From Minisyncoccota bacterium (lineage in GTDB: Bacteria; Patescibacteriota; Minisyncoccia; Phycocordibacterales; UBA5272): DNA of 64,000 bases. The notes under the pieces are model-generated. The model ran no database searches and was not told the DNA's origin. It worked only from the letters and a program-made list of their open reading frames with translations. Positions within the stretch are counted from its first letter, which is position 1. Each line of letters begins with the position of its first letter. This document shows positions 7,472 to 56,944 of the stretch, piece after piece. The translations under genes and the position numbers were made by a program. Where the stretch lies: NCBI GenBank assembly GCA_041651055.1, contig JBAZJW010000001.1, positions 373,325-437,324 of the forward strand. Reading direction: 5' to 3'.

Positions 7472-7500
7472 TAAAAACTAAAAACTGGAAACTAAAAACT
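7472..7500 (+). promoter_or_regulatory. A-rich AAAACT box, copy 1
   Basis: TAAAAACTAAAAACTGGAAACTAAAAACT. It sits 32 nt before a TATACT -10 (7533-7538) and the lepB ATG (7548). Confidence 0.5.
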
Positions 7501-16888: not shown

Positions 16889-16976
16889 TAGTCGTTAGGT
16901 AAACTGTAATGCGGGATAATTTGCTTTGCAAATTATCCCGCATTACCTAACGAAGAACGCCCTAACGTCCTAACTT
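16889..16976 (+). repeat. 80-bp hairpin module, copy 2
   Basis: Near-identical to 15021-15100 and in the same orientation, so the two copies flank the ABC gene as direct repeats. Confidence 0.9.
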
Positions 16977-17306
16977 CCCCTTCGGTAACTTCGCAACCGT
17001 TAGCGCCACATCCAACCATACCTCTCTCTTTGTTCTGTCTTCGTATATTTCTGATGGTACAAGGAAATAATATAAATGCGCATCTTTCCCTTCCTTTGTG
17101 TAGGTAAACTGTTTACTTCCTCGATCTAGATACCATGATGCCAATTCTTTTGATCCCTTGAAATACACTTCGTCGTTTTCGACGAGAGCAAAGGCCTTCC
17201 CTTCATAGTACAAAATATGCGCGCCCATCATGGCGCGAAAGGTAATCGGTTCAGATTCACCGAATATGTCATATACGATATATTCGAGAAAAGGTGTCGT
17301 CTTCAT
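16962..17306 (-). CDS. TfoX N-terminal domain-like protein
   Basis: RAMMGAHILYYEGKAFALVENDEVYFKG resembles the TfoX_N pattern (FGGYGLY.DG..FALI.D..LYLK). Confidence 0.4.
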   Translation of the reverse strand: MKTTPFLEYIVYDIFGESEPITFRAMMGAHILYYEGKAFALVENDEVYFKGSKELASWYLDRGSKQFTYTKEGKDAHLYYFLVPSEIYEDRTKREVWLDVALTVAKLPKGKLGR

Positions 17307-17386: not shown

Positions 17387-17413
17387 AAAACTAAAAACTG
17401 GAAACTAAAAACT
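17387..17413 (+). promoter_or_regulatory. A-rich AAAACT box, copy 2
   Basis: AAAACTAAAAACTGGAAACTAAAAACT, 23 nt upstream of TGCTATACT (17437-17445), which lies 7 nt before ATG 17453. Confidence 0.5.
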
Positions 17414-18770: not shown

Positions 18771-18798
18771 AAAAACTAAAAACTGGAAACTAAAAACT
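18771..18798 (+). promoter_or_regulatory. A-rich AAAACT box, copy 3
   Basis: Same 27-mer. It lies 39 nt upstream of TGATATACT (18838-18846), which is 6 nt before ATG 18853. Confidence 0.5.
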
Positions 18799-18852
18799 TT
18801 CATGGACGTTCTCCACTTTCACACCATATACCACATGTGATATACTTTTCAT

Positions 18853-20367
18853 ATGCCTCCAAATGACCAAGAAAAGATAGGACTTTTCATCAAGAAACTC
18901 CGTGAAGAAAAAGGAATGACCCAAGGTGAGCTTGCCAAAGCTCTCAAGACTTCCCAGCCCGCAGTGGCCCGTATTGAGTCTGGAAACCAAAATTTGACCA
19001 TAGAGCACATCGAAAAGATAAGCGAGGTACTTGGGCAACAAATCGTAACATTAAACGATACTATTGATTTTAAGGTTCATGGTGGCCGAAAATTATCCGG
19101 CTCTATCACCACCAACACCTCCAAAAATGGCGCAGTTAACATGATGGTCGCTGCCCTTGTAAACTCGGGCACTACCGTACTCCGCGACATTCCCCATATC
19201 GAAGAAGTGTACCGCTACAAAGAGCTTCTCGAGAGTTTGGGTGTGAAGATACGCTGGACACACGATGACACAGCACTTTCTATTACACCACCAAAGAAAC
19301 TTCTGTTTTCAAAAATGAACAAAGACGTCGCTACACGCATCCGGTCATTTACCTTTGCTGGTGCATTCATTCACTTCAGTGATCAGTTCACCCTCCCTCA
19401 TTCCGGTGGATGTAAAATGGGAGAACGCACCGTCGCGTCACATAAGTACGCGCTCGACTATCTCGGCGTTTCAATAGACACCAAAGAAAATCATTACGCT
19501 ATTTCCTACAAAAAATTACATACTGGAACTATTCCTTTATACGAATCATCAGATACAGGTGCCATCACTGCACTCCTCGCGGCATCTCGTATCGAAGGTA
19601 CGACGACAATTATGTTTGCTCCGCCGAACTACCAAGTGCAAGATGTGTGTTTCTTACTTGAACATTTTGGTGTAAAGATCGAAGGTATCGGAAGTACAAC
19701 GCTTATCGTACATGGCAAGAAAGACATTAATGTCGATGTCGAACATTACAATAGTGAAGACCCTATCGAAAGTATGTTTTTCTTGGCTGCCGGAATTGTT
19801 ACAGGATCGAAACTCACCATCACACGTTGTCCGATTGAATTCCTTACTCTTGAAATAGAAAAATTAAAGCGCATGGGATTGAAATATTCTCTTTCAAAGA
19901 AGTACCTCGCGAAGAATGAAAGAACATCTCTCGTTGATATTACTATTTCACCTTCGAAGTTAACCGCACCGACAGACAAAATCCACGCGCAACCTTTCCC
20001 TGGAATCAACAATGATAATCTCCCCTTCTTCGTACCAATTGCATGTTTTGCAGAAGGTCAAACTCTCATCCATGATTGGACATGGGAAAATCGCGCCATC
20101 TATTTTACAGAATTGAATCGCCTCGGCGCTGATATCAAATTACTCGACCCACACCGAGCCCTTGTGACGAGTGTGAAGAAATTACGCGGTGCACAAATCG
20201 TCTCCCCTCCTGCGCTTCGTCCGACCGCTATTATTTTGATCGCTATGCTTGCCGCTGAAGGCACATCATTACTTCGCAATGTGTACTCCATCAAGCGCGG
20301 CTACGCAGACATTGCTGAACGATTAAATTCTATCGGCGCGAAGATTGAAGTGTTAAGAGGAGTGTAA
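18853..20367 (+). CDS. murA: UDP-N-acetylglucosamine 1-carboxyvinyltransferase with an N-terminal XRE-type HTH domain (fusion)
   Basis: Residues 1-60: LRKLREEKGMTQGELAKALKTSQPAVARIESGNQNLTIEHIEKISEVLG (HTH_XRE). From residue 75: KVHGGRKLSGSITTNTSKNGAVNMMVAALV...HSGGCKMGERTV (MurA/EPSP-synthase fold with the active-site Cys). Confidence 0.75.
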   Translation: MPPNDQEKIGLFIKKLREEKGMTQGELAKALKTSQPAVARIESGNQNLTIEHIEKISEVLGQQIVTLNDTIDFKVHGGRKLSGSITTNTSKNGAVNMMVAALVNSGTTVLRDIPHIEEVYRYKELLESLGVKIRWTHDDTALSITPPKKLLFSKMNKDVATRIRSFTFAGAFIHFSDQFTLPHSGGCKMGERTVASHKYALDYLGVSIDTKENHYAISYKKLHTGTIPLYESSDTGAITALLAASRIEGTTTIMFAPPNYQVQDVCFLLEHFGVKIEGIGSTTLIVHGKKDINVDVEHYNSEDPIESMFFLAAGIVTGSKLTITRCPIEFLTLEIEKLKRMGLKYSLSKKYLAKNERTSLVDITISPSKLTAPTDKIHAQPFPGINNDNLPFFVPIACFAEGQTLIHDWTWENRAIYFTELNRLGADIKLLDPHRALVTSVKKLRGAQIVSPPALRPTAIILIAMLAAEGTSLLRNVYSIKRGYADIAERLNSIGAKIEVLRGV

Positions 20368-21544: not shown

Positions 21545-21565
21545 AGGAACAGTATAGAAGAAATA

Positions 21566-21594
21566 CTTTTTAGTTTCCAGTTTTTAGTTTTCAG
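21566..21594 (-). promoter_or_regulatory. A-rich AAAACT box, copy 4 (minus orientation)
   Basis: Reverse complement of the 27-mer. On the minus strand it is followed after 10 nt by TATACT, then 5 nt, then the NUDIX ATG. A partial extra copy lies at 21631-21647. Confidence 0.5.
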
Positions 21595-21636
21595 AAGATA
21601 CAAATACAAGGCGAGGCCTTGTATTAAAAATAGTTT

Positions 21637-22374
21637 TTAGTTTTTAGAATCAAGCAGAATGGTAGACGAAGGATTGAATCCTTTAACGACGAGCCAGATA
21701 CCGAGTGAAAATTCAAAGAGTGCTACGAGTAATGCAAATAATCCTGTGATTGGTGCATGTTGTCCGACGACGCCGAATAATATCGCAAGATACCCCACGA
21801 TAAGCACAGGTCCTCCGATGATTCCAATCAAAGAAAGGCCGCGAGGCACGAGGCGTGATTGATACAAAAGGACACCCAACAAAATGTCATTTATTGCTGG
21901 TAAGAAACTTTGACCAAGAAGGAAGATGCGATCATATAATATGGCGAGTGTGTGACCAGTAACGAGAGCCGCTGCTCCCGCACCCTCTTGTCGCAAAGCA
22001 ACAATCGACAAAAGAAAAGCTACACCGACAAACATAGTGCTTGCTTCTAGAATTCTGGATGCAACGAGACCTAATGCGAGTGTTTCATTCTGCTTTTTGA
22101 GCAATGGGAATAATACAATAGCCGTACCGATACCAGCGAGAGCCACGATGATTTCCGAAATACCTCCGATGATCATTGCTGTATCGGGGCCAACGCCGAG
22201 AATATAGCCAGCACTTTTTACTTGTCCATAGAGTGCAAGTGTTGGTATCGAAACAAAAGTGAGTAGATATAGCAAGCCTGCCGTTAATGATATTTTTCTT
22301 GAGGGTGATAAAACTTTCTTATATACCCCTTCCGTTCCAACAGTCTTCTCATTTCCAATTATTTTTTGTTCCAT
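21637..22374 (-). CDS. multi-pass membrane protein, possibly DUF4386-like
   Basis: 245 aa with about 7 hydrophobic helices. Family assignment is tentative. Confidence 0.4.
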   Translation of the reverse strand: MEQKIIGNEKTVGTEGVYKKVLSPSRKISLTAGLLYLLTFVSIPTLALYGQVKSAGYILGVGPDTAMIIGGISEIIVALAGIGTAIVLFPLLKKQNETLALGLVASRILEASTMFVGVAFLLSIVALRQEGAGAAALVTGHTLAILYDRIFLLGQSFLPAINDILLGVLLYQSRLVPRGLSLIGIIGGPVLIVGYLAILFGVVGQHAPITGLFALLVALFEFSLGIWLVVKGFNPSSTILLDSKN

Positions 22375-29174: not shown

Positions 29175-29204
29175 AGTTTTTAGTTTCCAGTTTTTAGTTT
29201 TTAG
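29175..29204 (-). promoter_or_regulatory. A-rich AAAACT box, copy 5 (minus orientation, no downstream -10 found)
   Basis: Reverse complement of the 27-mer, directly after the tsaD stop and facing back into tsaD. No TATACT follows on the minus strand. Confidence 0.4.
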
Positions 29205-36850: not shown

Positions 36851-37642
36851 TTATATAAGATACTGAATTGATTTTCCTGTAAAGATAACTTCTACCGCCA
36901 TGCCTGGATCTATACCCTGATACCCTTTTTTCGTATATTCAAAAATCAAATACTTACCGACGGGACCCATTGCCACAAGCAAGACCACATCCTTTACTAT
37001 TGCGTGTTCTAATTCCCTGTCTAGCTGTTTAGTGATTTCATCATACGAAGCAATAGCGTCAGATTCTGGTGTTTCTATGTAGACAATATTCTTCCACGGA
37101 AGGCTGCCATTACTTTTCAAGCGCTCAGTTGTTTCTCGTCTCGTTATACAAATAATTTTCTTATCTTGTATAACAGGGGCAATTACGTTCTCAAAATACG
37201 TATCATAATAAAAGTTATGGGCATCCATGTAACCTATTTTCTTAGGAAACATAAGAAAGAACATTACCTTAAGAGGTAACCACACGTTGAACTTTCCAAT
37301 CTTTTTTAATTCCTCATTTGAAAAATTAATAAACTGTGGGACAGATAATACATAGTTACTTTCTTGTTTGTACGATGTAACTATTTCCTTGATCATCGTC
37401 TTCAATCTCGGATTAAATGTATGATAGTGATTGTTTAAATCTAGTAGTAGGTTTATTTCCCCATCACCAAGACGGATAATAGATTTACCCTCCTGTGCTA
37501 ATTTAATAATTTCTTCTTTTGTATAAAAATGTTCACTGAAAGAAAAGCCCTTTAGAAAATACGTACACACATACACAATCACATAGAGGGGGTGTTTAAA
37601 TACATACCTTGATAAGAAATTAAAAATTCTTGTAACTGACAT
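36851..37642 (-). CDS. GT-D type glycosyltransferase (DUF1792)
   Basis: SIIRLGDGE matches the DUF1792 hallmark S.IR.GDGE. Confidence 0.55.
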   Translation of the reverse strand: MSVTRIFNFLSRYVFKHPLYVIVYVCTYFLKGFSFSEHFYTKEEIIKLAQEGKSIIRLGDGEINLLLDLNNHYHTFNPRLKTMIKEIVTSYKQESNYVLSVPQFINFSNEELKKIGKFNVWLPLKVMFFLMFPKKIGYMDAHNFYYDTYFENVIAPVIQDKKIICITRRETTERLKSNGSLPWKNIVYIETPESDAIASYDEITKQLDRELEHAIVKDVVLLVAMGPVGKYLIFEYTKKGYQGIDPGMAVEVIFTGKSIQYLI

Positions 37643-37652
37643 GGCGGAAGAC

Positions 37653-39416
37653 TTAGCTTCGTTTTGAAATTAAATAATTACCTAACGCTACATGTGGAAG
37701 ACCTGAATGTTCGAAAGTACGAAGTGCGTCTTCTGGCGTTTCTACGTTTGGTTCACCGTGCAAGTTAAAGCTGGTATTAAGAATACCACCTGAACCCGTT
37801 AATGTCTCATAGTGAGTGATGAGTGCATGATAGTCAGGGTTTACATCCTTCTTAACCATTTGTGGACGAGAGGTAAGATCGTATGGATGAAGTGCCGCAA
37901 TAAGTTCTGTATGTGCTAATTCTTTTGTCGGAAAAGTGATAGCCATAAATGGCGCATACTCATCTTTTTTCAAAACAAGGTAATCATGTCGTCGTTCATA
38001 GAGCATTGACGTAGCAAACGGCATCCAAAAGTCACGACCCTTTATCATTTCATTGATAAGCTTCACATTATCACGCGACGACGGATTCGCAAGAATAGAG
38101 CGGTTACCGAGGGCACGTGCACCCCATTCTGATCTTCCTTTCAATCGTCCGACGACACTGTTATTTGCAAGCAATTCTGCTACTTTTTTCTCCACAGTTA
38201 TTTCACTTTTTGGATCAAAATATTCTACGTCACAATGTTTACAAAACTCGTATTCATCTATTACCTTTTTTATTTCTTCATCAGAATATTCTGACCCAAG
38301 GTAGAGATTATTTATTTTCTTTAAACCTGACAAATCGTGATCATGTAACTTCGCATATCCATGCACCACGTCTCCAATGGCGATTGATTCATCTCCACCT
38401 GATGGCATAACAACGAGGGATCTCACTTCTTTCATCTCGGAAAGATATTGATTTGCCTTCACATTCATAAACACACCACCACCAACAACAATATCAAAAC
38501 AACCGTACTTCTTAATTGAAGCTCTAGCTAAATCTTTTATGATTTCTTCAGTTAACTTTTGTATTCCGTATGCAAGAGAATCGAAGCGGTGCTGATGATA
38601 ATCATGAGCGATAAGATATGGGGTCGCACGACGCATATCTATCGTTGCAACGAGCTGCATCGTATCTTCATCAAACCAGATTAACTCTTTCAACTTCTCA
38701 TATACTTTTTCACCGGAGGATTTTTTTGCATATGGTGCGAGACCCATCACTTTAAATTCATGCTCATTACGAGACATGCCCAGCAAATCTACAAATGACG
38801 CATACAGTAGCCCGAGAGAATTCTCACGTGCAAATCGATGCAGAACTTTAATATCTCCATTTTCAAAAAGATTGATTGATCCACAAAATGTATCCCCTTC
38901 ACCATCTAAAATAAGAATAAGCCGACGAGTGCGTACATCGTCAAGAAGCGGAATAGATGCCCAAGCATGAGAATCGTGATGTGCCATATTTACTATTTCA
39001 GCCCCAGGAAATTCATGAGCCAAAAACTTCTGAACAACTCCAGCAGGATTCTTAAGAGAGAGTCTCCAAGAATTAAGAGTTTCGTTTATCGTATATAATA
39101 AACCACTCAGTGGAATACGATCAATAACGGCTCGCATGAACCACACATTTTGTGTTGGTCGATTTCTATACTCGATAACATCTTGCTTTGTATTCGTTAT
39201 ATGAAGACCCAAGTCCATCCCATCAATAAAAACAAGCCTGAAATTCTCAATGCCATATTTCTTAATAAGGTATGCCAGTGCTTCATGTGGAAATCCTATG
39301 TACTTTTTTACACGAGTAATACGCTCTTCCATCATTGCTTCCACAATTTCACCATCCTTCATCAAAACGACTGTTGCGTCGTGACCAAAATTAACCCCAA
39401 GGAGATATTCACTCAT
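37653..39416 (-). CDS. carbamoyltransferase (NodU/CmcH family)
   Basis: YLLGVNFGHDATVVLMKDGEIVEAMMEERITRVK N-terminal Kae1/YgjD-like domain plus a C-terminal carbamoyltransferase domain. Confidence 0.8.
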   Translation of the reverse strand: MSEYLLGVNFGHDATVVLMKDGEIVEAMMEERITRVKKYIGFPHEALAYLIKKYGIENFRLVFIDGMDLGLHITNTKQDVIEYRNRPTQNVWFMRAVIDRIPLSGLLYTINETLNSWRLSLKNPAGVVQKFLAHEFPGAEIVNMAHHDSHAWASIPLLDDVRTRRLILILDGEGDTFCGSINLFENGDIKVLHRFARENSLGLLYASFVDLLGMSRNEHEFKVMGLAPYAKKSSGEKVYEKLKELIWFDEDTMQLVATIDMRRATPYLIAHDYHQHRFDSLAYGIQKLTEEIIKDLARASIKKYGCFDIVVGGGVFMNVKANQYLSEMKEVRSLVVMPSGGDESIAIGDVVHGYAKLHDHDLSGLKKINNLYLGSEYSDEEIKKVIDEYEFCKHCDVEYFDPKSEITVEKKVAELLANNSVVGRLKGRSEWGARALGNRSILANPSSRDNVKLINEMIKGRDFWMPFATSMLYERRHDYLVLKKDEYAPFMAITFPTKELAHTELIAALHPYDLTSRPQMVKKDVNPDYHALITHYETLTGSGGILNTSFNLHGEPNVETPEDALRTFEHSGLPHVALGNYLISKRS

Positions 39417-39494
39417 AATTATTCAATTATACCATACGCATGTTGGTCTGTATGAATTAAAGGTTTGAACAAAACCACACAGAGAAGCAGCCTT

Positions 39495-40286
39495 TTACCT
39501 TACAACTTTTGCCCAATCTTCCTCTGATTTTCCCGTACCCGTCTCAAAATCAACAGTGTTCTGTTTAACAATAAGAGGCACATACCCGTACAAATTAAAG
39601 TTAGTCTTAAATCGCGCCACGTTCGGTACCTGATCTGCCGTAAGACGAAGTGGTTGTGTAAATGGAAGAAGTTTCTTTGCTCCTTCAAGGGTCAAAATAT
39701 ACGCTCCAGCGTTGTACAATGGACGATAAAATCTTTTTCCAGAAGCATACCAGCTTATTTTCCTAGCAAAAAAGCTCCTGACTTCTTCGAAAATGGAAAG
39801 CGCAATTATGTACGGCGCTTTTATTATTGCATACAAAAAGAATAATGGTTTCTTTTGTATTGTTATGATAGTCGCAATAAACCAGTGATACAAAAAAGTA
39901 ATTCCGTCATAGCGATAATCAAACGACAGCCAATCCCATTTTTTATTCTTAGTATTAATTTCTTTTTCTATGATCAAAATAAAATCCGCGGGTAGCATAA
40001 TATCATCTTCCAGAATAACAGCGTATGGAATTTTTTCTTGTACAATTCTCTCATACACTAACGCATGAGCCACTGCACACCCCTTCTCACCAAAGTAGAG
40101 GGGTTTACCATGCTCCTCTATAGCACGCACAGCGTCATACCTTTCCACAACACGTGCGTCATCTCCATAAATACCATCAACAAATTCGTACTTCGCACCA
40201 AGTGCTTGTAGCTGCTTTTCGACAGCTTCTTTTTTCTTTACATCTATCGGCAAGTTGATGACAAAAATGGGAAATGATTGAATCAT
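39495..40286 (-). CDS. glycosyltransferase family 25 (LPS-type)
   Basis: FPIFVINLPIDVKKKEAVEKQL...YEFVDG matches the GT25 N-terminal pattern. Confidence 0.65.
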   Translation of the reverse strand: MIQSFPIFVINLPIDVKKKEAVEKQLQALGAKYEFVDGIYGDDARVVERYDAVRAIEEHGKPLYFGEKGCAVAHALVYERIVQEKIPYAVILEDDIMLPADFILIIEKEINTKNKKWDWLSFDYRYDGITFLYHWFIATIITIQKKPLFFLYAIIKAPYIIALSIFEEVRSFFARKISWYASGKRFYRPLYNAGAYILTLEGAKKLLPFTQPLRLTADQVPNVARFKTNFNLYGYVPLIVKQNTVDFETGTGKSEEDWAKVVR

Positions 40287-40292
40287 ATATCT

Positions 40293-41579
40293 CTATTTCT
40301 TATTAAGATTAAAGTAAAACAGCAGGGCGGAAAACGTATACGCAATGACTGTCGCAGATGCCGTCCCAACAATACCATATATAGGAGTTAACATATAAAT
40401 TAAAACTACATTTACGATTAAAGAACTGCCAAAAATCATAACCTGATGATGGTATTTATCTTTAACCCCATAAACGTTAATAAAAAAAGATATTAAAAAC
40501 ATAGCGGGTATAGAAAGAGAATAGACACGCAAAACTGGGACAGACTCAATAAATTTACTACCGTACAAAATTTTAACAGCTAACGGTGCGAATATTAAGA
40601 AAATAAAAAATATGAAAAATCCAATTCCTACATAATAAAACATTATTTTTTTTAAATTACTTTTTGACTCATCATTATCTTTAGTGGAAATATAAGCTAT
40701 ACGCGAAACCAGCGCGTTAGACAAAACACCAGCTAAAAAATTTGGAACATCCGAAATTCTAACTGCGGCAGAATAAATACCCAAAGTGTAAGCATTCGAC
40801 ACTGTCGCAAGAATTAATTGGTCAATACGAAGTAATAATTGCCAAAATATCAAAGAGGCAATACTTAAACGAATAGAATACAAAAAAATAAAAGAACTAA
40901 TAAGAGAAGGTAACCTAAAAGAATAAAAAACTTTTCTCCACTCTGACGATTTCAAAAAATACGTGCTAAAAATAAGACCGGCTAAAATTAAATCAAACGC
41001 TGAAATAACAATAAACCAAATTAGAGGAGCTTTGAGAAGCACAAAAGACACTTTCAAAATAAGCATGATGCCTGCATTAAGCATTTGTACAATTGAAACC
41101 AATTTTGCACGATTATTTACAATCGCATAAATTGAAAAAGTATTTAAGGACTGTAAAGAAATTGTGACAAGGATTATACTAACAAAAGTTGCAACGTCTT
41201 TTGGCAATACATACCATGCAGAAATAAGACCCATCAAAGACAATACTATATAAATATTAAACTTGTGCCCAAGGTATACTTTAAAATCTTCATGTTGGTG
41301 CTGACTTCTTACTAATTTCCAACCAAAGTAAAAATCCATTCCACTGATCACTGTCAAAAAAGCCCCAACATAATTTATAACGAAACTATAAAGACCTAAA
41401 TTTGTAGGGCCGAGATACCGGGAAACAATAATTACACTAATAAAGCTGGCTCCTTGTATAAAAACTTGAGCCAAAGTATACCAAGACAACTCCTTAAAAA
41501 GGGGCCTTAATAAAAGATTTTTAACACTAGAAACTAGTTTTGTATACATAATTACCTTCTTATACGCACATTGTAGCAT
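40293..41579 (-). CDS. oligosaccharide flippase (Wzx / MOP superfamily)
   Basis: 428 aa with about 12 TM helices; polysaccharide-biosynthesis-protein-like pattern. Confidence 0.6.
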   Translation of the reverse strand: MLQCAYKKVIMYTKLVSSVKNLLLRPLFKELSWYTLAQVFIQGASFISVIIVSRYLGPTNLGLYSFVINYVGAFLTVISGMDFYFGWKLVRSQHQHEDFKVYLGHKFNIYIVLSLMGLISAWYVLPKDVATFVSIILVTISLQSLNTFSIYAIVNNRAKLVSIVQMLNAGIMLILKVSFVLLKAPLIWFIVISAFDLILAGLIFSTYFLKSSEWRKVFYSFRLPSLISSFIFLYSIRLSIASLIFWQLLLRIDQLILATVSNAYTLGIYSAAVRISDVPNFLAGVLSNALVSRIAYISTKDNDESKSNLKKIMFYYVGIGFFIFFIFLIFAPLAVKILYGSKFIESVPVLRVYSLSIPAMFLISFFINVYGVKDKYHHQVMIFGSSLIVNVVLIYMLTPIYGIVGTASATVIAYTFSALLFYFNLNKK

Positions 41580-41617
41580 TTAGACTTGAATAAGGACTAT
41601 CTTTACAAATACCCTTC

Positions 41618-42430
41618 TTAAATTAAAGATTTTAATAAACCTCTTATTTTTTTACCCAAAATAACTAAAAAGAAAAACCCTCTCTTCCAGAGCTGAATAT
41701 GATTACTCAAAACTAAACTCTTAAGAAAGAAAAGGTTGCTACCAATAGCCAAAGATTCTGTACCATGTTTTCTGAGTCCTGTTACATTATTCAAATGCTG
41801 TCTGTAATCTTGTAAATATTCATCTATAAAAAATGGTTTAGCTGGCCAAATCGCTAACTGAATCCAAGAATCATGACTCGGTGTGTGTGGAGGGGCTGGC
41901 CAAATATTTTTTAAAAGGGAAGCTCTAAATGATGTAGCACATCCTAATATGCATGAACCCCATGTATAATACGAAAGCCTTCTTCTTTCCTTGTCATAAT
42001 AATTACTACCTATAAAATCTTTTAAGCACCCTATTGGTTTATTTTCTTCATTAGTAACCACCACTTTATTGTATACCCACTGGATTGATTTATCCTTATA
42101 TTTATCCATATGAAGTTGTATTTTATTTGAATACCAAACATCGTCGCAATCGCATAAAAAAATGATCTCACCGTTACAACGAGATATGGCTTCTGTAAAA
42201 TTCGAAAGAACTCCACGTTCTCGAAGGCTAGCAGACCAACGAATTCTTTTATCCTTACCCGCATATTCTGATAAAATATTTTGAGTATTATCCGTACTAC
42301 CATCATCACTAATAACAACTTCAATATTTGAATAAGTCTGAGAAAGCAGTGAATCTAACTGATCACGTATAAACCGTTCACTGTTGTAAACAGTCATAGC
42401 AACTGAAACAAGTGGATTTTTAATGCTCAT
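41618..42430 (-). CDS. glycosyltransferase family 2
   Basis: VSVAMTVYNSERFIRDQLDSLLSQTY...VVISDDGSTDNT. Confidence 0.7.
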   Translation of the reverse strand: MSIKNPLVSVAMTVYNSERFIRDQLDSLLSQTYSNIEVVISDDGSTDNTQNILSEYAGKDKRIRWSASLRERGVLSNFTEAISRCNGEIIFLCDCDDVWYSNKIQLHMDKYKDKSIQWVYNKVVVTNEENKPIGCLKDFIGSNYYDKERRRLSYYTWGSCILGCATSFRASLLKNIWPAPPHTPSHDSWIQLAIWPAKPFFIDEYLQDYRQHLNNVTGLRKHGTESLAIGSNLFFLKSLVLSNHIQLWKRGFFFLVILGKKIRGLLKSLI

Positions 42431-42469
42431 ATTTTATGATTTATAGACATGAACTCATACGTTCATATG

Positions 42470-43480
42470 TTACTGACGACACATTGTTACACAGATAATA
42501 TTAGATTTTCTCAAACATAACGATGAGTTAGAAAAAAGAATATTCAGGAATTCACGAACTTTCTTTATCATATGAAGTATCATTTTCAAAAAGACATACA
42601 TATGAAATTTTTCTGTTAAAATTCGTAATTTTGATTTTACATAACGAGGATATAAAACATCTCCATTTTTTGTAAAAAAACTTGTTCGCACAGAAAGATT
42701 TGGTATCTCTGGTTTTAATAAAGTACCAAAAAAAATATTATAAAAACCAAATGAGAAGAAAGAAGCTTTCAAGCCCAACATCTCAGCAAAGGAACTAATA
42801 CCTTTTTCAGAAAACCATGTCAAATGAACAGGAGGTAGATCTGTTCCCCATAATGTTTTATCGGGATGCCATGAACGGTTCGGAGTAGTAAGAATTAATA
42901 TACCTTCTGGACTAAGCAAAGTCATGGCATGTTCAATATATTTCTTAGGGTCATGAACATGTTCTATTAACTCAAGCATACAGATTGCATCATAACCACC
43001 CCCTATTCCTTTAAAACTAAAAAAATTTTCGCATACAAAATAATCACCGTACCTGCTGGTGGCTTTCTCTATAGCATTACTGGAAATATCTAAACCTGTG
43101 GCTTTATATCCTCCTTTAACTAAGGCATATGTCATGTAACCAAGACCACAACCAACATCTAAAATGTTACCGTTTTTCGTTATGTTTTTATCAATACTTT
43201 TTACAACGCTGTAATACATCTCCTCTTTAAACTTCAAAAACCTAAGAGGGTTACTTGAATAAAGAATTTCTTCAGCATATTCGTTATACCTCATATACCC
43301 TGGCGTATCTTTTTCTGAATAAATAAGATTATACACAGAACTCTCTTCTGTGTGTGGCGAAGACCATTTTGTGCCACAGGAAAAGCAAGAACATATAAAA
43401 TAAAAAGCCCCTTGAACATATCCTTCTATTTGAGATTCTTTTAAGATATTTTGACTGCCGCACGCTATACAAGTTTCCAT
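42470..43480 (-). CDS. class I SAM methyltransferase with an N-terminal Zn-ribbon
   Basis: CIACGS...CSCFSCG ribbon; ILDVGCGLGYMTYAL motif I. Paralog of 44564..45568. Confidence 0.65.
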   Translation of the reverse strand: METCIACGSQNILKESQIEGYVQGAFYFICSCFSCGTKWSSPHTEESSVYNLIYSEKDTPGYMRYNEYAEEILYSSNPLRFLKFKEEMYYSVVKSIDKNITKNGNILDVGCGLGYMTYALVKGGYKATGLDISSNAIEKATSRYGDYFVCENFFSFKGIGGGYDAICMLELIEHVHDPKKYIEHAMTLLSPEGILILTTPNRSWHPDKTLWGTDLPPVHLTWFSEKGISSFAEMLGLKASFFSFGFYNIFFGTLLKPEIPNLSVRTSFFTKNGDVLYPRYVKSKLRILTEKFHMYVFLKMILHMIKKVREFLNILFSNSSLCLRKSNIICVTMCRQ

Positions 43481-43626
43481 AATTAACCAACAGTATAAAA
43501 CAATAATTCATTTATCGCTATTATCGTCACATTTCTTTTCATTATTATATTAATACGAAAGTAGTTTTACCCATTCATAACATTATGGCATTAGTCTAAT
43601 TGAATATATGGTAAAATTAAAGCACA

Positions 43627-44574
43627 ATGAAAAACATAGCTCTCGTAACAGTAACCTACAACGCCGGTAAAAACCTCCCATTTTTCCTCCCCTCTCTCGT
43701 GCAAAATAAAGAGATAATCTCTCATGTTTACTTTGTCGATAACAATTCTAAGGACACTACACTCTCGACACTTGAGACGTTTAAAAAACTAGAAGAAGAA
43801 AGTTTTGATGTACATATTATTTCCAATAGAAAAAATTACGGGTACACACATGCGGTAAACAGTGGTATTCAAAAAGCTCTTGATGATGGATTTAAATATA
43901 TCTGTGTAACCAACAACGACATTGCTTTTGAACATGGATTCTTTGCCAAAATGCTAAGCGAGTTCACAGAAAACACCATAGACGCTCTCGGTGTACCAGC
44001 AAGTATCAATGAACACGACCTTGGTCTCGGCTATAGTTTGGACAGCACAACGTATGCGCCGAAAAAAGATCAACCAATAAAAAGAAAAGATATACAGAGA
44101 GAAATTCTCAAAAACCCCCTACCTTCAATCGACTTCCCTCATGGTGGCACCATTCTTTTCAGCAGATACTTTTTTGAAAATATCGGCCTCTATGATCACC
44201 ATTTATTCTTCGGTGGCGATGAACTAGATTTTTTGTATCGTGTCACCGCATACAATGCTGCACATGATACAAAAATAAAATGCGCCGTCTCGCTTACTTC
44301 TTTTTTAAAACTAGACAATCTCTCTCATCATAATAATGGTAATAAATTCATAAAAGCCAGAGGCATGCTACAAGGAAATGCTCGTGTACATTTGAAACAC
44401 ACATCCACACCATTTCAATCAAAACTTTATAGAGAGCAGCATTCGCTCATTCAATCATTAGCAAAAGGAAGCCTCATGAGATACATTGCACTTTATCTCT
44501 TTGCACTTCGTGGACTCTGTATAGAAATATATAGGTACTATCGAGATTCTATGGTACAAAAAATTACTTCGTAA
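43627..44574 (+). CDS. glycosyltransferase family 2
   Basis: IALVTVTYNAGKNL...YFVDNNSKD. Confidence 0.6.
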   Translation: MKNIALVTVTYNAGKNLPFFLPSLVQNKEIISHVYFVDNNSKDTTLSTLETFKKLEEESFDVHIISNRKNYGYTHAVNSGIQKALDDGFKYICVTNNDIAFEHGFFAKMLSEFTENTIDALGVPASINEHDLGLGYSLDSTTYAPKKDQPIKRKDIQREILKNPLPSIDFPHGGTILFSRYFFENIGLYDHHLFFGGDELDFLYRVTAYNAAHDTKIKCAVSLTSFLKLDNLSHHNNGNKFIKARGMLQGNARVHLKHTSTPFQSKLYREQHSLIQSLAKGSLMRYIALYLFALRGLCIEIYRYYRDSMVQKITS

Positions 44575-45568
44575 TTACAATACACATCGAGGAAGATCGT
44601 GAAGAAGGTGTCTTGTGTTTCAATCGAAGCTTTATGTACGCTAACAGCGAATGTAATCTTACACCGAGTAATTTCGATTTCCAACTATACACGACTTGCT
44701 TGGGATCAACGTCTCCACTCGCGAGCAGACGTGGCAAACTTGCCTGTATCTGCTCCATGGAAGAGTCTGCGCCATAGTCGAAGAACTTTGTTGTGTATGG
44801 AGTAAAATCAATAAACTCACATTTCTTACCAAAACTCTTTGCGACAGTAGAGAGACTTTCTTCGGCAAACCACCATAAGTGAACGGGCGGCACATCACTC
44901 TGCCACACGGTTCCTTGTTTAGATTTATTTTTATTTGGTGTCGTCATTATCAACGTACCTCCGTCTTTAAGCAGAGAAAGTGCGGCTTCTATAAAAGCTT
45001 TAGGATCTTCTACGTGCTCTATCAATTCTGTCATGATTACACAATCAAATAATTCTTTTTTATTCTTAGCCACCACAAACAAATCCCCTGCTTCATAAAA
45101 GTTTCCATATCGTTCTGTTGCCTTTGCCACAGCTTCTTTAGAAAGATCTAAGCCTGTCGTCGCATACCCCGCTTTATTCAAGCTGTAGGTTAAATACCCC
45201 AAACCACTTCCTATTTCCAAAACAGAAATATCTTTTTTATTTGGAAAGCTTTTTTGTAATGCTTCTCGTACTGCCCAGTAGGTATTCTCTAAATTAGCTA
45301 AAACATCAAGTGGGTTCTTCACTTTTTTTACAAGCTCCGCAAACCGGTGATACCTCATGTATCCTGGAATAATCTCGACTTGTCGATAAATGTGATTATA
45401 TATTCTTTCGTCTGATTTTGCAGGATCCACAAAACTCGCCTTACAATTTACACATTCATAAATATCAAACTTTGAATTTTCAATATAGCCAAGCATTCCT
45501 ATATACGTACGTTTTACTTCACCGTCACACAAAGAGCATTTTTTAGTATGCATAATAGTATTATTCAT
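44564..45568 (-). CDS. class I SAM methyltransferase with an N-terminal Zn-ribbon (paralog)
   Basis: CSLCDG...CVNCKA ribbon; VLEIGSGLGYLTYSL motif I. The domain order is shared with 42470..43480. Confidence 0.65.
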   Translation of the reverse strand: MNNTIMHTKKCSLCDGEVKRTYIGMLGYIENSKFDIYECVNCKASFVDPAKSDERIYNHIYRQVEIIPGYMRYHRFAELVKKVKNPLDVLANLENTYWAVREALQKSFPNKKDISVLEIGSGLGYLTYSLNKAGYATTGLDLSKEAVAKATERYGNFYEAGDLFVVAKNKKELFDCVIMTELIEHVEDPKAFIEAALSLLKDGGTLIMTTPNKNKSKQGTVWQSDVPPVHLWWFAEESLSTVAKSFGKKCEFIDFTPYTTKFFDYGADSSMEQIQASLPRLLASGDVDPKQVVYSWKSKLLGVRLHSLLAYIKLRLKHKTPSSRSSSMCIVITK

Positions 45569-45601
45569 GGGAATGATTATACCAATATTTTTTGGTCTAC
45601 A

Positions 45602-46948
45602 CTATCTCCCAAACAACCCCTTAAACCATGCGACGATTCGGGTGTCTTTTTGTGTGTGGACAACTCGTGTGACAGATGTAGTGCTGGCGACGATAGTGGA
45701 TGTCGCAGCAGATGCGTGGGGCACTGTTTTCACTATAACCTTTTGATATACACGAGCAGGTGCTTGTATGAGAATGCTTTTTATCGGCATGGTCGTAGCA
45801 ATCGTCGTAGTCGCAGCACCCAACACCAACCCTTCATCTTTAATGTATTTCGTCACTTCTTCTTGATTCGGAAAAAGAATTTGAACAACCGTGCCAGACG
45901 AAATAGTACTACTTGCGAATCCCATCGCTACACCAGAAAAATGTGTTACACCACCGGCAGCGAGTAATGTGTTTTTTGGAAAAGGAAAAGCAGAACCATT
46001 TATCAAAAGTTTCCATTGAGAAAAATCTAAGTCGTACGGGTTCGGATTCGTAATATCTACATACGTGCCATATTTGCCAGAAGCAATAGCACTGATGGCA
46101 ATATCTGGAGGCACGACACGCACCGTCATACGACCTGTACCAGCCACGTATCCATTCGTACCTTCCACTTGCGCGACGTACCTGCCGGCATACGCATACC
46201 GATACTTTGTCGACGTGCCGACGGCTTGTCCCCCATCACCAAAGGCCCATGTGCATGTGAGTCCATCAATAGTTTTGCCAGCGCGCGTCATACCATACGT
46301 ACTGAATTCTGTTTCAGCACCAGCGACGACGGTTTTTTCAAACGGCATATACAAAATAATATCAGGCGATGGTGGAGACATTTGTGCGACGGTCACTTGA
46401 TGCTCTGTCGTTGTGGTCGCTGTCGTATCTGTCGGAGTCGTTGTGTCGACGACAGCTGGCGCACTATTTTCTGATCCCGGTGTCGGCGTCGTTTGAATAA
46501 AGCTTCCGTTCACACGTGATAAAGTCATACCCTCTTTTGCTGCCGTATAGGACGAAAGAATGTCTAAGGAGACACCGTTTAGTTTTATTTCAATCGATGT
46601 AACACCAGTGTTCACTAAACTTATAGAACTTTTAAAAAGTGAACCATTGTATAGTGGGTAGTCCTGCAAAAATTTCGTCACCCCACTTACGGTCGAAGCA
46701 ATAATCGCATACTCTCCCGCATTAAGCGTCGTACCCCCTGAAAGGGGTGTAGTCACGATTGCTGCACCTCCTTTTATGGAAATAGTAAGCGCAGAAATAT
46801 CCACCGGTACTGTCGTATCGTTATACAATTCCACCCACTCTCTCCCTCCATCATCTCCTGTCGGATTAGACATAATCTCACTTATCAAAAGCGCATGTGT
46901 ACTCATGGTGCCGCTCATAAAAAGTGAAAGGATGAGGAGTTTTTTCAT
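45602..46948 (-). CDS. secreted lamin-tail-domain (LTD) protein
   Basis: Signal peptide MKKLLILSLFMSGTMSTHA. Two LTD-like segments (LISEIMSNPTGDDGGREWVELYN...ISALTI and YVDITNPNPYDLDFSQWKLL) and a T-rich linker. Confidence 0.6.
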   Translation of the reverse strand: MKKLLILSLFMSGTMSTHALLISEIMSNPTGDDGGREWVELYNDTTVPVDISALTISIKGGAAIVTTPLSGGTTLNAGEYAIIASTVSGVTKFLQDYPLYNGSLFKSSISLVNTGVTSIEIKLNGVSLDILSSYTAAKEGMTLSRVNGSFIQTTPTPGSENSAPAVVDTTTPTDTTATTTTEHQVTVAQMSPPSPDIILYMPFEKTVVAGAETEFSTYGMTRAGKTIDGLTCTWAFGDGGQAVGTSTKYRYAYAGRYVAQVEGTNGYVAGTGRMTVRVVPPDIAISAIASGKYGTYVDITNPNPYDLDFSQWKLLINGSAFPFPKNTLLAAGGVTHFSGVAMGFASSTISSGTVVQILFPNQEEVTKYIKDEGLVLGAATTTIATTMPIKSILIQAPARVYQKVIVKTVPHASAATSTIVASTTSVTRVVHTQKDTRIVAWFKGLFGR

Positions 46949-46952
46949 AGTG

Positions 46953-48788
46953 TTATGACTCCTCTTCTATAAGTTTACGCAAAACTTCTTCGGCTATTTC
47001 TTTTTGCACACGCTTATTTTCTTCTACCACCGTTTCTTTCTTTGTATCATGCGTGCGATCTGTATTTTCTGTTATCTGTCGACTGTCAGCTGATGACTGT
47101 CTATTCTCTTCCATTGCTTTTGCTAGAGCTTCTTTGAGTGATAGCGCCGGCTTTTCATCAAAGGTTTTTGGATATTCTATGCGAGAACGTTCTTCAGGTA
47201 CACCTTTTGTTGGTTGGGTACGCACTTGCTCTTGTGGCACACGCCTCTCTTCCGTATGCTGACGAGGTCTATCTTCTTGATGGCCACCTCTTTGGCTATT
47301 TGCGTGTGAAGGAGTGTCTCTTCGTGGATCCTGACTTCTTTCTCCTTGTACGCTCCCTTTTCCATTATCTAATGGCCTACTTTCTGGTTGTCTTCGTGGT
47401 GCAGGTGCATCGTGTCGGATTTCGCGCACTTTCATATCTCGCTCATCTCGTGGTTTTCCTTCGTCTCTTTTTGTTTCAGCTTTTTCTATTGGTTTGTAGA
47501 AGGCATTAATTTCTTCTTCAACTTCAGCGATTGGTTTACCATAGCTTTTACGCGAATAGGCAATAACCTCATCACTAAATGAGCGTGCAGGCTTTTGTAT
47601 TGGACCAAGAGTGTGTGCTGAGAACGGCTTCGAGCCTTGCCCATCAATCATCAAGCGAAGATAAATTTGAAACGCGGAGAGGTTCACAATGTCGTCCAAA
47701 ATGAAATATGGCGCAAATTCTTTTTCAAAAATTTCTGCATCAGTCGCACCAACACGAAATACAATCATGGTACCTACGTTTCCAAAGACGGCCGCCTTTA
47801 CCTCGTCTGTCATTTGTTCGACATACTGATGTGCAACGGTGAGAGCAAGATTGTACTTACGCGCTTCCGAAAGAATGTTTGCAAAAGATTCATTGGCAAA
47901 GTTTTGGAATTCATCTACGTACACATAAAATGGTGGTAACTTTTCTAGTTCGTATGGACCGACATCGGCACGAGACATGGCTGCAAGGTATATTTTTGTA
48001 ATCAAGAGTGAACCGATCAAATTCGCATTTCCTTCTCCAACTTTTCCTTTAGAAAGGTTCACGATAATAATCTTTTTTGTATCCATCGCATCACGCAAAT
48101 CAATAGATGTTTTTTGTTGTCCGACAATATTTCTAATCAGTGGATTGCCGACGAATTGTCCAACTTTGTTCTGGATGGCAGGTGCAGCTTCTGCTGCGAA
48201 CTTCTCTGTATAGGACGCATATTCTTTTTCCCAAAAATCTTTCACCGTCGGATCTGTCACATTCGAAACAATAAACTTACGATACTCTTTATCTACCAAC
48301 ATTCTATTCACACCGAGCAGACTTTGATTATCATTTTCAAGAAGAGCGAGGATAATGTTCGTCAAAATATATTCCATACGCGCACTCCATGCATCAACCC
48401 AAATCTTTTTGAAAGCCGCCATGATACCGTTTGCCACCAAGTGACGCTTTTCTTTTTCTACTTTTTCAAGAACGTTCAATCCTATAGGACTATCGACATC
48501 AAACGGAGCAAAGTAGATAACATCTTTTACACGAGATTCTGGTATGTGGTCGAGCAACTTTTCAGCAAGTGATCCGTGTGGGTCAATAACACAAACACCT
48601 TCACCGTTGTTGATATCTTGAATAATGAGATTCTCGAGAAGGGTTGATTTTCCCATACCTGTCTTTCCAATGACATAAGTGTGGCGAGTGCGATCGTTTT
48701 CTTTGATGCCGAAAGTAAGCTGTTTATTTCTGTAATCAACCTTACCGATGTAGGTTACTTTTTCTTTATGCGGCTCTTGATCTGACAT
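46953..48788 (-). CDS. VirD4/TraG/TraD-like P-loop ATPase (TraM-recognition/TrwB family) with a ~170-aa disordered R/E/Q-rich C-tail
   Basis: Walker A VIGKTGMGKST, DEFQNF Walker B region, HQYVEQ motif. Tail from residue ~440 is low complexity. Confidence 0.55.
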   Translation of the reverse strand: MSDQEPHKEKVTYIGKVDYRNKQLTFGIKENDRTRHTYVIGKTGMGKSTLLENLIIQDINNGEGVCVIDPHGSLAEKLLDHIPESRVKDVIYFAPFDVDSPIGLNVLEKVEKEKRHLVANGIMAAFKKIWVDAWSARMEYILTNIILALLENDNQSLLGVNRMLVDKEYRKFIVSNVTDPTVKDFWEKEYASYTEKFAAEAAPAIQNKVGQFVGNPLIRNIVGQQKTSIDLRDAMDTKKIIIVNLSKGKVGEGNANLIGSLLITKIYLAAMSRADVGPYELEKLPPFYVYVDEFQNFANESFANILSEARKYNLALTVAHQYVEQMTDEVKAAVFGNVGTMIVFRVGATDAEIFEKEFAPYFILDDIVNLSAFQIYLRLMIDGQGSKPFSAHTLGPIQKPARSFSDEVIAYSRKSYGKPIAEVEEEINAFYKPIEKAETKRDEGKPRDERDMKVREIRHDAPAPRRQPESRPLDNGKGSVQGERSQDPRRDTPSHANSQRGGHQEDRPRQHTEERRVPQEQVRTQPTKGVPEERSRIEYPKTFDEKPALSLKEALAKAMEENRQSSADSRQITENTDRTHDTKKETVVEENKRVQKEIAEEVLRKLIEEES

Positions 48789-48875
48789 GAAAATAGTATA
48801 CCAAGAATAGGTTTTAGGTGATAGGTTTTAGGCTGTAGATAGGGGTAGGAATATTCAATGAAACAATATTCAACA

Positions 48876-50093
48876 CTAGTTAGTGTGCAGTGCTGCCGGA
48901 GTGTAATGATTTGCAGGATCCCATAGCATCCATGAATCTATTCCAAGCCTCTCCCCTGCTGTTATCTGTGCTCGAACCATTTCTGCTGTATAGGTCGCCC
49001 CCATATCAAAGTCCTGATACCATGGTCGATACTTCGCACGAATAGTCGATGTCGCCTGCCCTGTACTACTTGCCACTTCATCTGCTATCTCTATTCCTTT
49101 TTTCATTGAATACGAAATGATTGGCCCAGGATTTGCTGCAGGGTTTTGATATCCCGCAGTGCCTGCATAAAAATGTGAAGGATAAATCATCGGGGCGACG
49201 TAATCAAATGTTTCAAGTGCTGTATGCATATCTTGACCGAGCACAGCGATGTCTACCTTGGTCACCATGATGATGCCGAACAAGTCTCCGGACACAGGTA
49301 TGCCGTCTTTACGAAGTGAGTCAGTGATGTAGTGATAAAACTCAGACACGATGCCAGGCTTATCAACTTTTGCCCTCTCCCCACTAATTGGAAATGTCAT
49401 ATCTGAAAGCGCTCCATCTGTAGGGAAGCGGATATAATCCAGATTCACCTCATCGAATCCACGAGCGTAAGAATCTTTTGAAATATTTTCCAAGTATCTC
49501 CACATTTTTTTTGAACCAGTATCTACCCATGGAATACCCTTATGATCTTTCCATATATCCCCTGTCTTCTTGGAACGAACAGCTTCTTCTGGATATCTCT
49601 TTACATACAAAGGATCCTGGAATGCTGCGATGCGTGCAATAACATAAATATTTTTTGCATGAAGTTCATCTAAAAATGCATCAAGGTCACGTATTCTTCC
49701 ATCCCACGAAACAAGCCCTGTATTATCTTTGACGTCAATAACCACTGAGTTGATTTCAGTATCGTCGATAAGTTTTACAAGTTTTGTTCGCACAGAAGGT
49801 GAGCCCGCCACCCAGCTCGACATATATATTGCCTTCACATGCTCTGGAGTTTTGATATGCGTAACGACACGCACAGCTTCTGTGGTTGTAGGTGCCGACA
49901 CTGTTTCATCTTTTACATTTGTTTGTGCAAATGCTTTAGCCATTGAGGATGTAGATGTCGCCAGATCTCCTCCATGTTTACTATACGCAACAGTTCCTAA
50001 CCCCTTTGAAAAAGGAAGATACTGATAACCACTATCTAATATCCAGAAAAAGGCTAATAATCCCGCCACGAGTCCTGCTGTTACTATCTTCAT
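48876..50093 (-). CDS. putative glycoside hydrolase of the DUF4015/GH-like TIM-barrel family
   Basis: N-terminal signal anchor; GFDEVNLDYIRFP motif typical of DUF4015 proteins. Confidence 0.5.
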   Translation of the reverse strand: MKIVTAGLVAGLLAFFWILDSGYQYLPFSKGLGTVAYSKHGGDLATSTSSMAKAFAQTNVKDETVSAPTTTEAVRVVTHIKTPEHVKAIYMSSWVAGSPSVRTKLVKLIDDTEINSVVIDVKDNTGLVSWDGRIRDLDAFLDELHAKNIYVIARIAAFQDPLYVKRYPEEAVRSKKTGDIWKDHKGIPWVDTGSKKMWRYLENISKDSYARGFDEVNLDYIRFPTDGALSDMTFPISGERAKVDKPGIVSEFYHYITDSLRKDGIPVSGDLFGIIMVTKVDIAVLGQDMHTALETFDYVAPMIYPSHFYAGTAGYQNPAANPGPIISYSMKKGIEIADEVASSTGQATSTIRAKYRPWYQDFDMGATYTAEMVRAQITAGERLGIDSWMLWDPANHYTPAALHTN

Positions 50094-50311
50094 GCCGATA
50101 CCGTTGTGTGCATTACAGGAGTGCTTTCGGTTTCTTGGTGTTCTGGATGGTCTCCGTGATGAATAACTTTCTTACGTAAATCAAGAGTGCTAATGAAAAG
50201 AAGAACGCCTGCGACAATAAAAGCAACATCTTTGAAAAGTCCTGGTATAAAAATCCATGGAGAGAGAACAAGGAGGATGGCGACTGCGCGTTTGATTCCG
50301 AGAGGTGACAT
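50090..50311 (-). CDS. small membrane protein, 2 TM helices
   Basis: 73 aa. Its stop overlaps the start of the downstream GH-like gene. On the minus strand the sequence runs TATACT, 10 nt, then ATG. Confidence 0.4.
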   Translation of the reverse strand: MSPLGIKRAVAILLVLSPWIFIPGLFKDVAFIVAGVLLFISTLDLRKKVIHHGDHPEHQETESTPVMHTTVSA

Positions 50312-50334: not shown

Positions 50335-50364
50335 AGTTTTTAGTTTCCAGTTTTTAGTTTTCAG
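50335..50364 (-). promoter_or_regulatory. A-rich AAAACT box, copy 6 (minus orientation)
   Basis: Reverse complement of the 27-mer, 5 nt upstream of TATACT, which lies 10 nt before ATG 50311. Confidence 0.5.
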
Positions 50365-54799: not shown

Positions 54800-56633
<1,834 letters not shown>

Positions 56634-56944
56634 ATTTAATAGAGTGTGACAAAAGAAAAAACAAAAAAATGCACAATGTTTATGTAATGTATTGTGAAGC
56701 GTCACTTCAGTTCTTTTTTATGTTTAGAATTTCTAAAACAAAAAAGGAGCTGAACAGCTTCTATTAAAATTTCAAATGACTACAATTACTGCTCACTGCT
56801 TATGAGTAAGAAGTAGGACTATTCTATACTGTGCAGCACGTAAAGTCAAGCTTCTAATCAACAACACAAGCCATAACAGACAAACTTTTACAATATCCAC
56901 AGATATGCTTGCCATTTAAGGCTATTTTGATTAAACTCGTAGCA

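Follow-up and report, generated by a model that had tools for sequence, protein, structure and literature searches.

The fused gene and its family

Positions 18853-20367 of the 64,000-nt stretch analysed here (the window; contig JBAZJW010000001.1 of a Minisyncoccota bacterium, a member of the Candidate Phyla Radiation, CPR) harbour a gene joining an XRE-type helix-turn-helix (HTH) domain to a MurA-type enolpyruvyl transferase, termed HTH-MurA in the following. An earlier note, made from the sequence alone, described a single continuous frame of 504 aa composed of an XRE-type HTH, a linker and a complete MurA with its catalytic Cys, and this was borne out by the list of open reading frames (ORFs), by Pfam and by alignment to the MurA of E. 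coli. The gene comprises the following features:

18853..20367, plus strand: complete HTH-MurA gene, 504 aa and stop codon, ATG start (ORF list)
18865..19035, plus strand: XRE/HTH_3 DNA-binding domain (predicted), residues 5-61 (Pfam HTH_3, helices of the AlphaFold2 (AF2) model, invariant columns)
19036..19068, plus strand: flexible linker, residues 62-72 (predicted local distance difference test, pLDDT, of the AF2 model)
19069..20361, plus strand: MurA-type enolpyruvyl transferase domain, residues 73-503 (tblastn with E. coli MurA, PDB, AF2)
19411..19413, plus strand: codon of the catalytic Cys187 (E. coli MurA Cys115) in the loop GGCKMGER (alignment to E. coli MurA)

Pfam assigned HTH_3 to residues 13-61 (E 2.5e-14, 53.5 bits against a cutoff of 23) and EPSP_synthase (PF00275) to residues 76-491 (E 1.9e-41). 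In a PDB search, residues 73-503 were best matched by MurA chains and the HTH part, separately, by controller and antitoxin-type small XRE proteins; a solved chain spanning both parts was not found there. The AF2 model of the 504-aa protein (mean pLDDT 90.3, predicted template modelling score, pTM, 0.82) has four HTH helices at residues 5-19, 24-30, 35-42 and 50-60 (pLDDT 82-91), a linker with a mean pLDDT of 57 across residues 61-70 (below 50 at residues 66-68) and a MurA domain with pLDDT above 90 over most of its length, its Cys loop being flexible as expected for MurA. As modelled, the HTH is a separate four-helix domain, apart from the MurA fold and tethered to it by the flexible linker.

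The same ORF, letter for letter and with the same neighbours, is present on a 559-kb ENA contig and on a 4-kb Logan contig, and its protein (P0001) is also recorded on a 775-kb contig labelled Candidatus Paceibacterota. The fusion is considered genuine, because the same ORF occurs in independent assemblies and the same architecture in hundreds of clusters. An artefact of sequencing, assembly or gene calling that joined a small HTH gene to murA, the refuting case named in the earlier note, can be dismissed with near certainty: no frameshift or assembly error was found, and relatives from Patescibacteria to Streptomyces, the latter including complete genomes of cultured strains, keep HTH and murA in one frame.

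The same Pfam architecture was observed in over 118 additional 90%-identity clusters, with a length of 504 aa in almost every case, and a scan of all 50%-identity representatives yielded fused proteins down to about 30% identity plus a few unfused ones in the same subfamily. Scanning of GTDB genomes with the most conserved peptide of the family, TSQ[SP]A[VI][AN]RIE, located at least 596 confirmed HTH-MurA loci. The best 80 of these belong to Paceibacterota, Minisyncoccia, Saccharibacteria-labelled metagenome-assembled genomes, Uhrbacteria, Kerfeldbacteria, Streptomyces and Kitasatospora, about 60 of them to cultured Streptomyces/Kitasatospora species with 51-53% identity to the window protein over residues 8-504. 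Further lineages, among them Liptonbacteria, Taylorbacteria, Colwellbacteria and Doudnabacteria, came from a second protein search. The family was delineated in this analysis by peptide, architecture, clade in a neighbour-joining (NJ) tree and promoter palindrome (see below), and the window protein possesses the N-terminal peptide HTH, a linker of about 10 residues, the MurA-clade domain and the palindrome of this MurA2-type family.

The fused gene of Streptomyces is murA2 (SCO5998 / sven5810 / vnz_28735): it is located divergently from an aconitase gene, and this synteny matches the reported arrangement of SCO5998 (murA2) and SCO5999 (acnA) (PMC12161575). One complete Streptomyces genome (L048) was unusable for this purpose due to an RHS toxin gene inserted next door, and other loci were used. 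According to the available excerpts of the literature, murA2 is the second MurA copy of Streptomyces and carries a predicted DmdR1 site (PMC12161575), is a footprinted target of BldM-WhiI during sporulation (PMC4125116), has a SigB-dependent promoter (PMC8346170) and causes no exploration phenotype upon overexpression (PMC11005364). In these excerpts, only a MurA-type transferase is named, and neither an HTH nor autoregulation is mentioned. No paper on the HTH of MurA2 or of any HTH-MurA, and no description of its operator, was found in the literature searched, which left out most subscription journals, so that absence is not proof. The architecture, called unusual in the earlier note, is so for MurA generally; it is not rare, since the family is large and already annotated, including murA2 of Streptomyces.

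The promoter palindrome and the HTH domain

Two overlapping features precede the fused gene:

18827..18844, without strand: operator-like palindrome TATACCACATGTGATATA, predicted target of the HTH encoded by the gene itself, with one mismatch relative to the consensus of the CPR loci
18818..18846, plus strand: sigma-70-type promoter TTCACA-17-TATACT with extended -10 TG (promoter scan, 10/12 matches)

The right arm of the palindrome and the -10 box (18841-18846) overlap. As the latter ends just 6 nt before the ATG, the HTH-MurA mRNA of the window is probably leaderless. In the CPR loci, the consensus TATATCAyATrTGATATA is located just before the start codon in AT-rich, otherwise unrelated upstream DNA; from this consensus the window site deviates by one mismatch, with 0.15 chance matches expected in the window. 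The Streptomyces loci have cATCTCATATcTGAGATA in the same position, embedded in GC-rich (70% GC) and otherwise variable intergenic DNA, the site of the murA2 promoter being CATCTCATATCTGAGATA. A joint CPR/Streptomyces pattern, ATmTCA-N4-TGAkAT, was detected within -90 to +30 of the gene start in 80 of 81 fused loci (74 perfect), where it ends 6-13 nt before the ATG and supplies the -10 hexamer with its right arm. The palindrome was not found upstream of three unfused members of the clade (P0121, P0123, P0124). It thus co-occurs with the HTH in 80/81 fused loci and in both loci of a catalytically degenerate class (see below), vs 0/3 unfused relatives. The possibility that the gene of P0121, the closest unfused relative, had been split, with the HTH in an ORF of its own, was rejected, as a tRNA gene and a small membrane ORF are located upstream.

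Since the palindrome overlaps the gene's own -10 box in nearly all loci and is not seen where the HTH is lacking, the comparative evidence supports the suggestion of the earlier note that the fusion is possibly autoregulatory. In agreement with what is expected of an XRE/HTH_3 regulator, the site at 18827-18844 is a palindrome at the promoter presumed to be regulated.

The HTH itself holds 16 of the 38 invariant columns within about 60 residues (alignment of eleven fused proteins, 29-82% identity) and, judged by this alignment, is the best-conserved module of the family. Its recognition helix (TSQPAVARIESGNQN, residues 33-47) hardly varies, whereas identity in the enzyme half falls to 30%. The top NCBIfam match of the HTH is the antitoxin family TIGR03070, and the 18-mer palindrome also occurs at operons of Gp49/HigB-like toxins and XRE antitoxins (L111, L112, L115, L138, L141, L157, L128 and others), often overlapping the start codon of the toxin gene (MIY...). 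The antitoxins of these operons have recognition helices near-identical to that of the MurA-fused HTH, e.g. KTSQSAVARMESGKQN in L128 as compared to the closely similar KTSQPAVARIESGNQN of the window protein. XRE antitoxins are a protein class with established operator binding, and as they share both helix and palindrome, the same helix-operator pairing recurs in that class. Recruitment of the MurA-fused HTH from the HigB/Gp49-type antitoxin class, or common ancestry with it, is suggested by these findings.

The occurrence of the 18-mer at toxin-antitoxin operons and elsewhere implies that other XRE proteins presumably bind it, and one could suppose that at the murA promoter, too, the palindrome is bound by another regulator such as a free XRE protein, or is a mere promoter feature, the fused HTH having its targets elsewhere. 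We regard this as very improbable in view of the co-occurrence of site and HTH in the fused and degenerate-class loci but not in the unfused relatives, of the near-invariance of the recognition helix despite the divergence of the enzyme half, and of the retention of the site in GC-rich Streptomyces DNA, which argues against an effect of base composition.

Away from the fused gene, about 1 Mb of flanks contained just one more perfect site, in L013, approx. 13 nt upstream of murC (identified by TIGR01082, 410 bits), which hints at a small peptidoglycan regulon in this genome. At L013:3924-3939, the perfect palindrome ATCTCATATATGATAT is divergent from a 70-aa ORF followed by a homologue of VanX-like D-Ala-D-Ala dipeptidases (weak match, 31.7 bits). 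A large palindrome-marked regulon was considered and found no support, the window having one weak extra site and the metagenome copies (see below) residing mostly in toxin-antitoxin or low-complexity DNA; a small regulon of peptidoglycan genes (murB, murC, mur operons) is indicated by the comparisons for some genomes only.

The weak extra site, TATGTCATATACGATATA at 17265-17282 (two mismatches), is located within the 5' end of a TfoX_N-family ORF (16962-17306, minus strand), upstream of an Nramp gene, and could be a coincidence of coding sequence. L003 and L008 have similar half-degenerate sites, ATATCATACAATATAT and ATATCATACAAAATAT, at a distance of 1.5-2 kb upstream of their fused genes. 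In Streptomyces (L018-L082), an operator-like ACATCAGCCTTGAGAT with one mismatch is located at about +118 nt within the gene (e.g. L048:6119), and sites of this type are perfect in L016, L019, L027 and L073. As this sequence is part of the HTH coding region and encodes a conserved N-I-S-L-E-M, it may represent a second operator or a by-product of the conserved protein sequence.

Catalysis, degenerate members and a candidate circuit

Alignment to E. coli MurA (reference sequence 100% identical to 1UAE, the numbering of which is used; 27% identity with the window protein over 435 residues) revealed that the window protein retains K22, N23, R91, C115, R120, D305, R331, R371 and R397. These nine catalytic residues are invariant across 121 close homologues, and the eight checked in a set of 129 diverse fused proteins are kept in 116, the other 13 being degenerate. 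The NCBIfam MurA subfamily NF006873 was passed narrowly (304.1 bits, cutoff 297). A murB gene is located in the window itself (52331-53356), indicating that the cell-wall pathway is in use. In intact-class members of L118, L127 and L130, MurB (Pfam confirmed) is the divergent partner, and the palindrome resides between the two genes. On account of the invariant catalytic residues and the pairing with murB, the window protein is likely an active UDP-GlcNAc enolpyruvyl transferase. Searches of gene neighbourhoods extended over the window plus flanks of at most 10 kb; a second MurA-family gene was found neither within the 64-kb window nor in the flanks of about 100 intact-class loci, and contigs shared with canonical CPR MurA matches occurred for the degenerate class only. 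The fused gene may be the sole MurA of this small CPR genome, although Streptomyces shows that a distant second copy is possible.

Of the nine catalytic residues, 2 to 9, always including C115, are lost in seven distant fused representatives, which have kept the HTH. Two degenerate members could be placed on contigs, each sharing its intergenic region, with a perfect palindrome therein, with mur genes. P0130, itself followed on its own strand by Ddl and a Mur ligase, is divergent, at a distance of 60 bp, from an unfused MurA that is catalytically competent and precedes MurB; P0274 is divergent, at 72 bp, from an operon of murD-like / Mur ligase / Mur ligase / MurA / MurB. A rough NJ tree groups the fused proteins, whether intact or degenerate, in a single clade that also includes a few nested unfused sequences, and places the unfused MurAs neighbouring degenerate-class genes among the canonical MurAs. 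On this sequence evidence, the history resembles a single old fusion with a later division of labour within one lineage, and the catalytically dead subclade beside mur operons seemingly represents a clean natural case of an enzyme turning regulator.

In the degenerate-class locus L083, a D-Ala-D-Ala ligase fused to Peptidase_C39_2 (529 aa, L083:11467-13056) starts about 10 nt before the end of the HTH-MurA-like gene, i.e. the two overlap. P0184, a protein of 1204 aa from a high-GC source, has a catalytically degenerate MurA-like domain at its C-terminus (residues 756-1198) and a long N-terminal region resembling, by eye, SIR2/STAND-type NTPases; the MurA fold may here have been put to use as a sensor once more, perhaps for defence.

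What is known of MurA control concerns mainly the protein itself, through feedback by UDP-MurNAc and, in Gram-positive bacteria, through proteolysis. We propose, with moderate confidence, that the HTH-MurA protein is both an active enzyme and a repressor of its own gene, i.e. a probable trigger enzyme. Two copies of the protein, predicted to pair as a dimer, would bind the two half-sites of the joint pattern through their XRE-type HTH domains. Bound over the -10 box and the start of the leaderless transcript, they would block RNA polymerase, acting as repressor rather than activator, and the blocked promoter would allow the enzyme to set its own level. In some genomes, the same site would also control divergent murB, murC or whole mur operons. 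Most speculative is the step in which the known open-to-closed change of the MurA fold on binding UDP-GlcNAc/PEP, or tight binding of UDP-MurNAc, alters DNA binding and thereby couples precursor supply to transcription; such ligand control via the MurA fold is plausible as a conjecture. Correspondingly, we put forward only tentatively the wider notion of a family of ligand-responsive enzyme-repressors in which occupancy by UDP-GlcNAc, PEP or UDP-MurNAc is fed back on the own gene and, in some genomes, on murB, murC or mur operons, and of which one subclade decayed to a MurA-fold sensor-repressor beside a canonical MurA.

If true, this would represent a previously undescribed circuit for the synthesis of cell-wall precursors, common to Patescibacteria and Streptomyces. 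It could explain the role of the second MurA of Streptomyces as well as how ultra-small CPR bacteria, with few regulators, tune wall synthesis; as the tractable Streptomyces carries the same family and operator, the hypothesis is testable at once.

Several observations weigh against a protein that is both MurA and its own repressor. Concerning the operator, one fused locus (L022, Kerfeldbacteria) was without the palindrome in the joint-pattern scan of the 81 loci, as is the murB gene of the window. A metagenome scan for the 18-mer alone returned 84 sites in 80 loci, only 16 (tblastn) to about 20 (by eye) of these sites belonging to HTH-MurA genes; most of the other copies are located in toxin-antitoxin operons or AT-rich low-complexity DNA, and the site is, hence, not unique to the family. 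MurA enzymes are generally described as monomers, and binding to a palindrome presumes a dimer. Furthermore, the net charge of the HTH is not positive (9 K+R vs 9 D+E). Concerning the enzyme, the cutoff of the MurA equivalog TIGR01072 was missed (284.1 vs 392.7 bits), and several positions aligned to residues of the UDP-GlcNAc side differ clade-wide (K160E, V163D, G164T, D123A, D369P; S162 and R331 of this set are retained), the local alignment being uncertain at the given identity. In view of the missed equivalog and the changed residues, the substrate of the fused enzyme could differ from that of MurA.

The lack of net positive charge would also suit an HTH that does not bind DNA and instead serves as a protein-protein or localisation module tethering MurA to the division or elongation machinery. 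RodZ, the XRE-type HTH of which binds MreB in cell-wall synthesis, provides a precedent, and ftsA and ftsZ are located about 5-7 kb upstream in the window; RodZ is among the subjects of PMC9804626. However, such a module would leave unexplained a palindrome at the gene's own -10 box that is kept across two phyla and lost along with the HTH, as well as the antitoxins that have the same recognition helix and adjoin the same palindrome. Moreover, the best matches are HTH_3 and antitoxin types, with the RodZ-type HTH_25 absent from the Pfam matches. We consider this alternative highly improbable, and nothing was found in support of the localisation function that the earlier note had mentioned as well.

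The deviations in the enzyme half bear on a further alternative, namely that the protein is essentially a transcription factor, the MurA-like domain of which is a ligand sensor or an enzyme for another substrate, and that a separate canonical MurA does the housekeeping in the manner of Streptomyces MurA1. The non-catalytic subclade beside canonical MurA fits this, as does, from the excerpt available, the fused gene being the second MurA in Streptomyces (PMC12161575). On the other hand, the invariance of all nine catalytic residues in the window clade and the retention of eight in most of the diverse fused proteins argue for selection on catalysis. Intact-class genes pair directly with murB and have no adjacent canonical murA, which degenerate-class loci do have; canonical CPR MurA matches share contigs with the latter class only, and a redundant second MurA is less expected in the small genomes of this group. 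A pure transcription factor is, thus, unlikely for the window protein, and the enzyme-repressor remains the preferred interpretation.

Other features of the window and comparison with known systems

As a candidate target of the HTH, the earlier note had pointed to an AAAACT box in the promoter region. This box is part of a 27-nt array of four heptads, AAAACTAAAAACTGGAAACTAAAAACT, that is identical at six sites of the window (sequence pattern search):

7474-7500, 17387-17413 and 18772-18798, plus strand: copies of AAAACTAAAAACTGGAAACTAAAAACT
21565-21591, 29175-29201 and 50335-50361, minus strand: copies of AAAACTAAAAACTGGAAACTAAAAACT
21632-21644, minus strand: partial copy of AAAACTAAAAACTGGAAACTAAAAACT

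In total, 18 matches to the AAAACT-array pattern were counted in the window vs 1.5 expected. Only contigs of this genome contained the array, vs 0/203 other loci, and being genome-specific and absent from the orthologous CPR upstream regions compared, it was discarded as target of the HTH, the conserved element being the palindrome at 18827-18844. It is usually preceded by a terminator-like hairpin and followed by a TATACT -10 box near an ATG, and could be an UP-like element, the binding site of another regulator or a small repeat. At 29175, the copy directly adjoins a convergent gene's stop codon. TATACT -10 boxes only 6-9 nt before the ATG and without Shine-Dalgarno sequence were observed upstream of 7524, 17453, 18853, 21544 (minus strand) and near 50300 (minus strand); the same layout in related CPR loci and in Streptomyces murA2 was also noted. 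This arrangement points to frequent use of leaderless mRNAs by the genome.

Elsewhere, the window contains a 16S rRNA match at 54893-56640 (minus strand) of 1,748 nt vs the 1,533-nt model, probably a 16S rRNA gene with an insertion of about 200 nt; insertions are often reported in CPR rRNA genes. Downstream on the same strand, a gene for tRNA-Ile and then murB follow. The block 36851-50093 (minus strand) was considered as a dcw cluster with operators and rejected, as its contents represent a cluster for synthesis of surface polysaccharides. It encodes glycosyltransferases, methyltransferases, a Polysacc_synt flippase and a carbamoyltransferase, as well as DUF4015, a DUF87/TrwB-like ATPase and an LTD/PKD-domain protein.

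With canonical MurA (E. coli, 1UAE), the window protein shares the fold and the nine catalytic residues; unlike it, it has the additional HTH domain and falls into a separate clade of the rough NJ tree. RodZ likewise has an XRE-type HTH attached to a protein of cell-wall synthesis, but is a membrane protein without enzyme domain, the HTH of which binds MreB rather than DNA and has no operator. The HigA-type XRE antitoxins of HigB/Gp49-like operons have an HTH closely similar to that of the window protein and TATATCAyATrTGATATA at the promoter, but are small, stand-alone and toxin-paired, with neither an enzyme domain nor a link to the cell wall.

BirA, NadR and PutA are bifunctional enzyme-repressors with both activities experimentally proven. 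By analogy, HTH-MurA would likewise be a pathway enzyme with a DNA-binding domain that represses its own or pathway genes, the ligand state being expected to set binding; folds, HTH class and pathway are unrelated, and both activities are predicted in the present case. To our knowledge, no trigger enzyme has been described for MurA or any other Mur enzyme, and none was found in the literature searched. The closest counterpart is MurA2 of Streptomyces. Unlike the window gene, it is, as far as the available excerpts report, a second copy under developmental and stress control; like the window protein, it combines the same architecture and catalytic residues, at the identity given above, with an operator of the same type (cATCTCATATcTGAGATA), there located 10-13 nt before the ATG.

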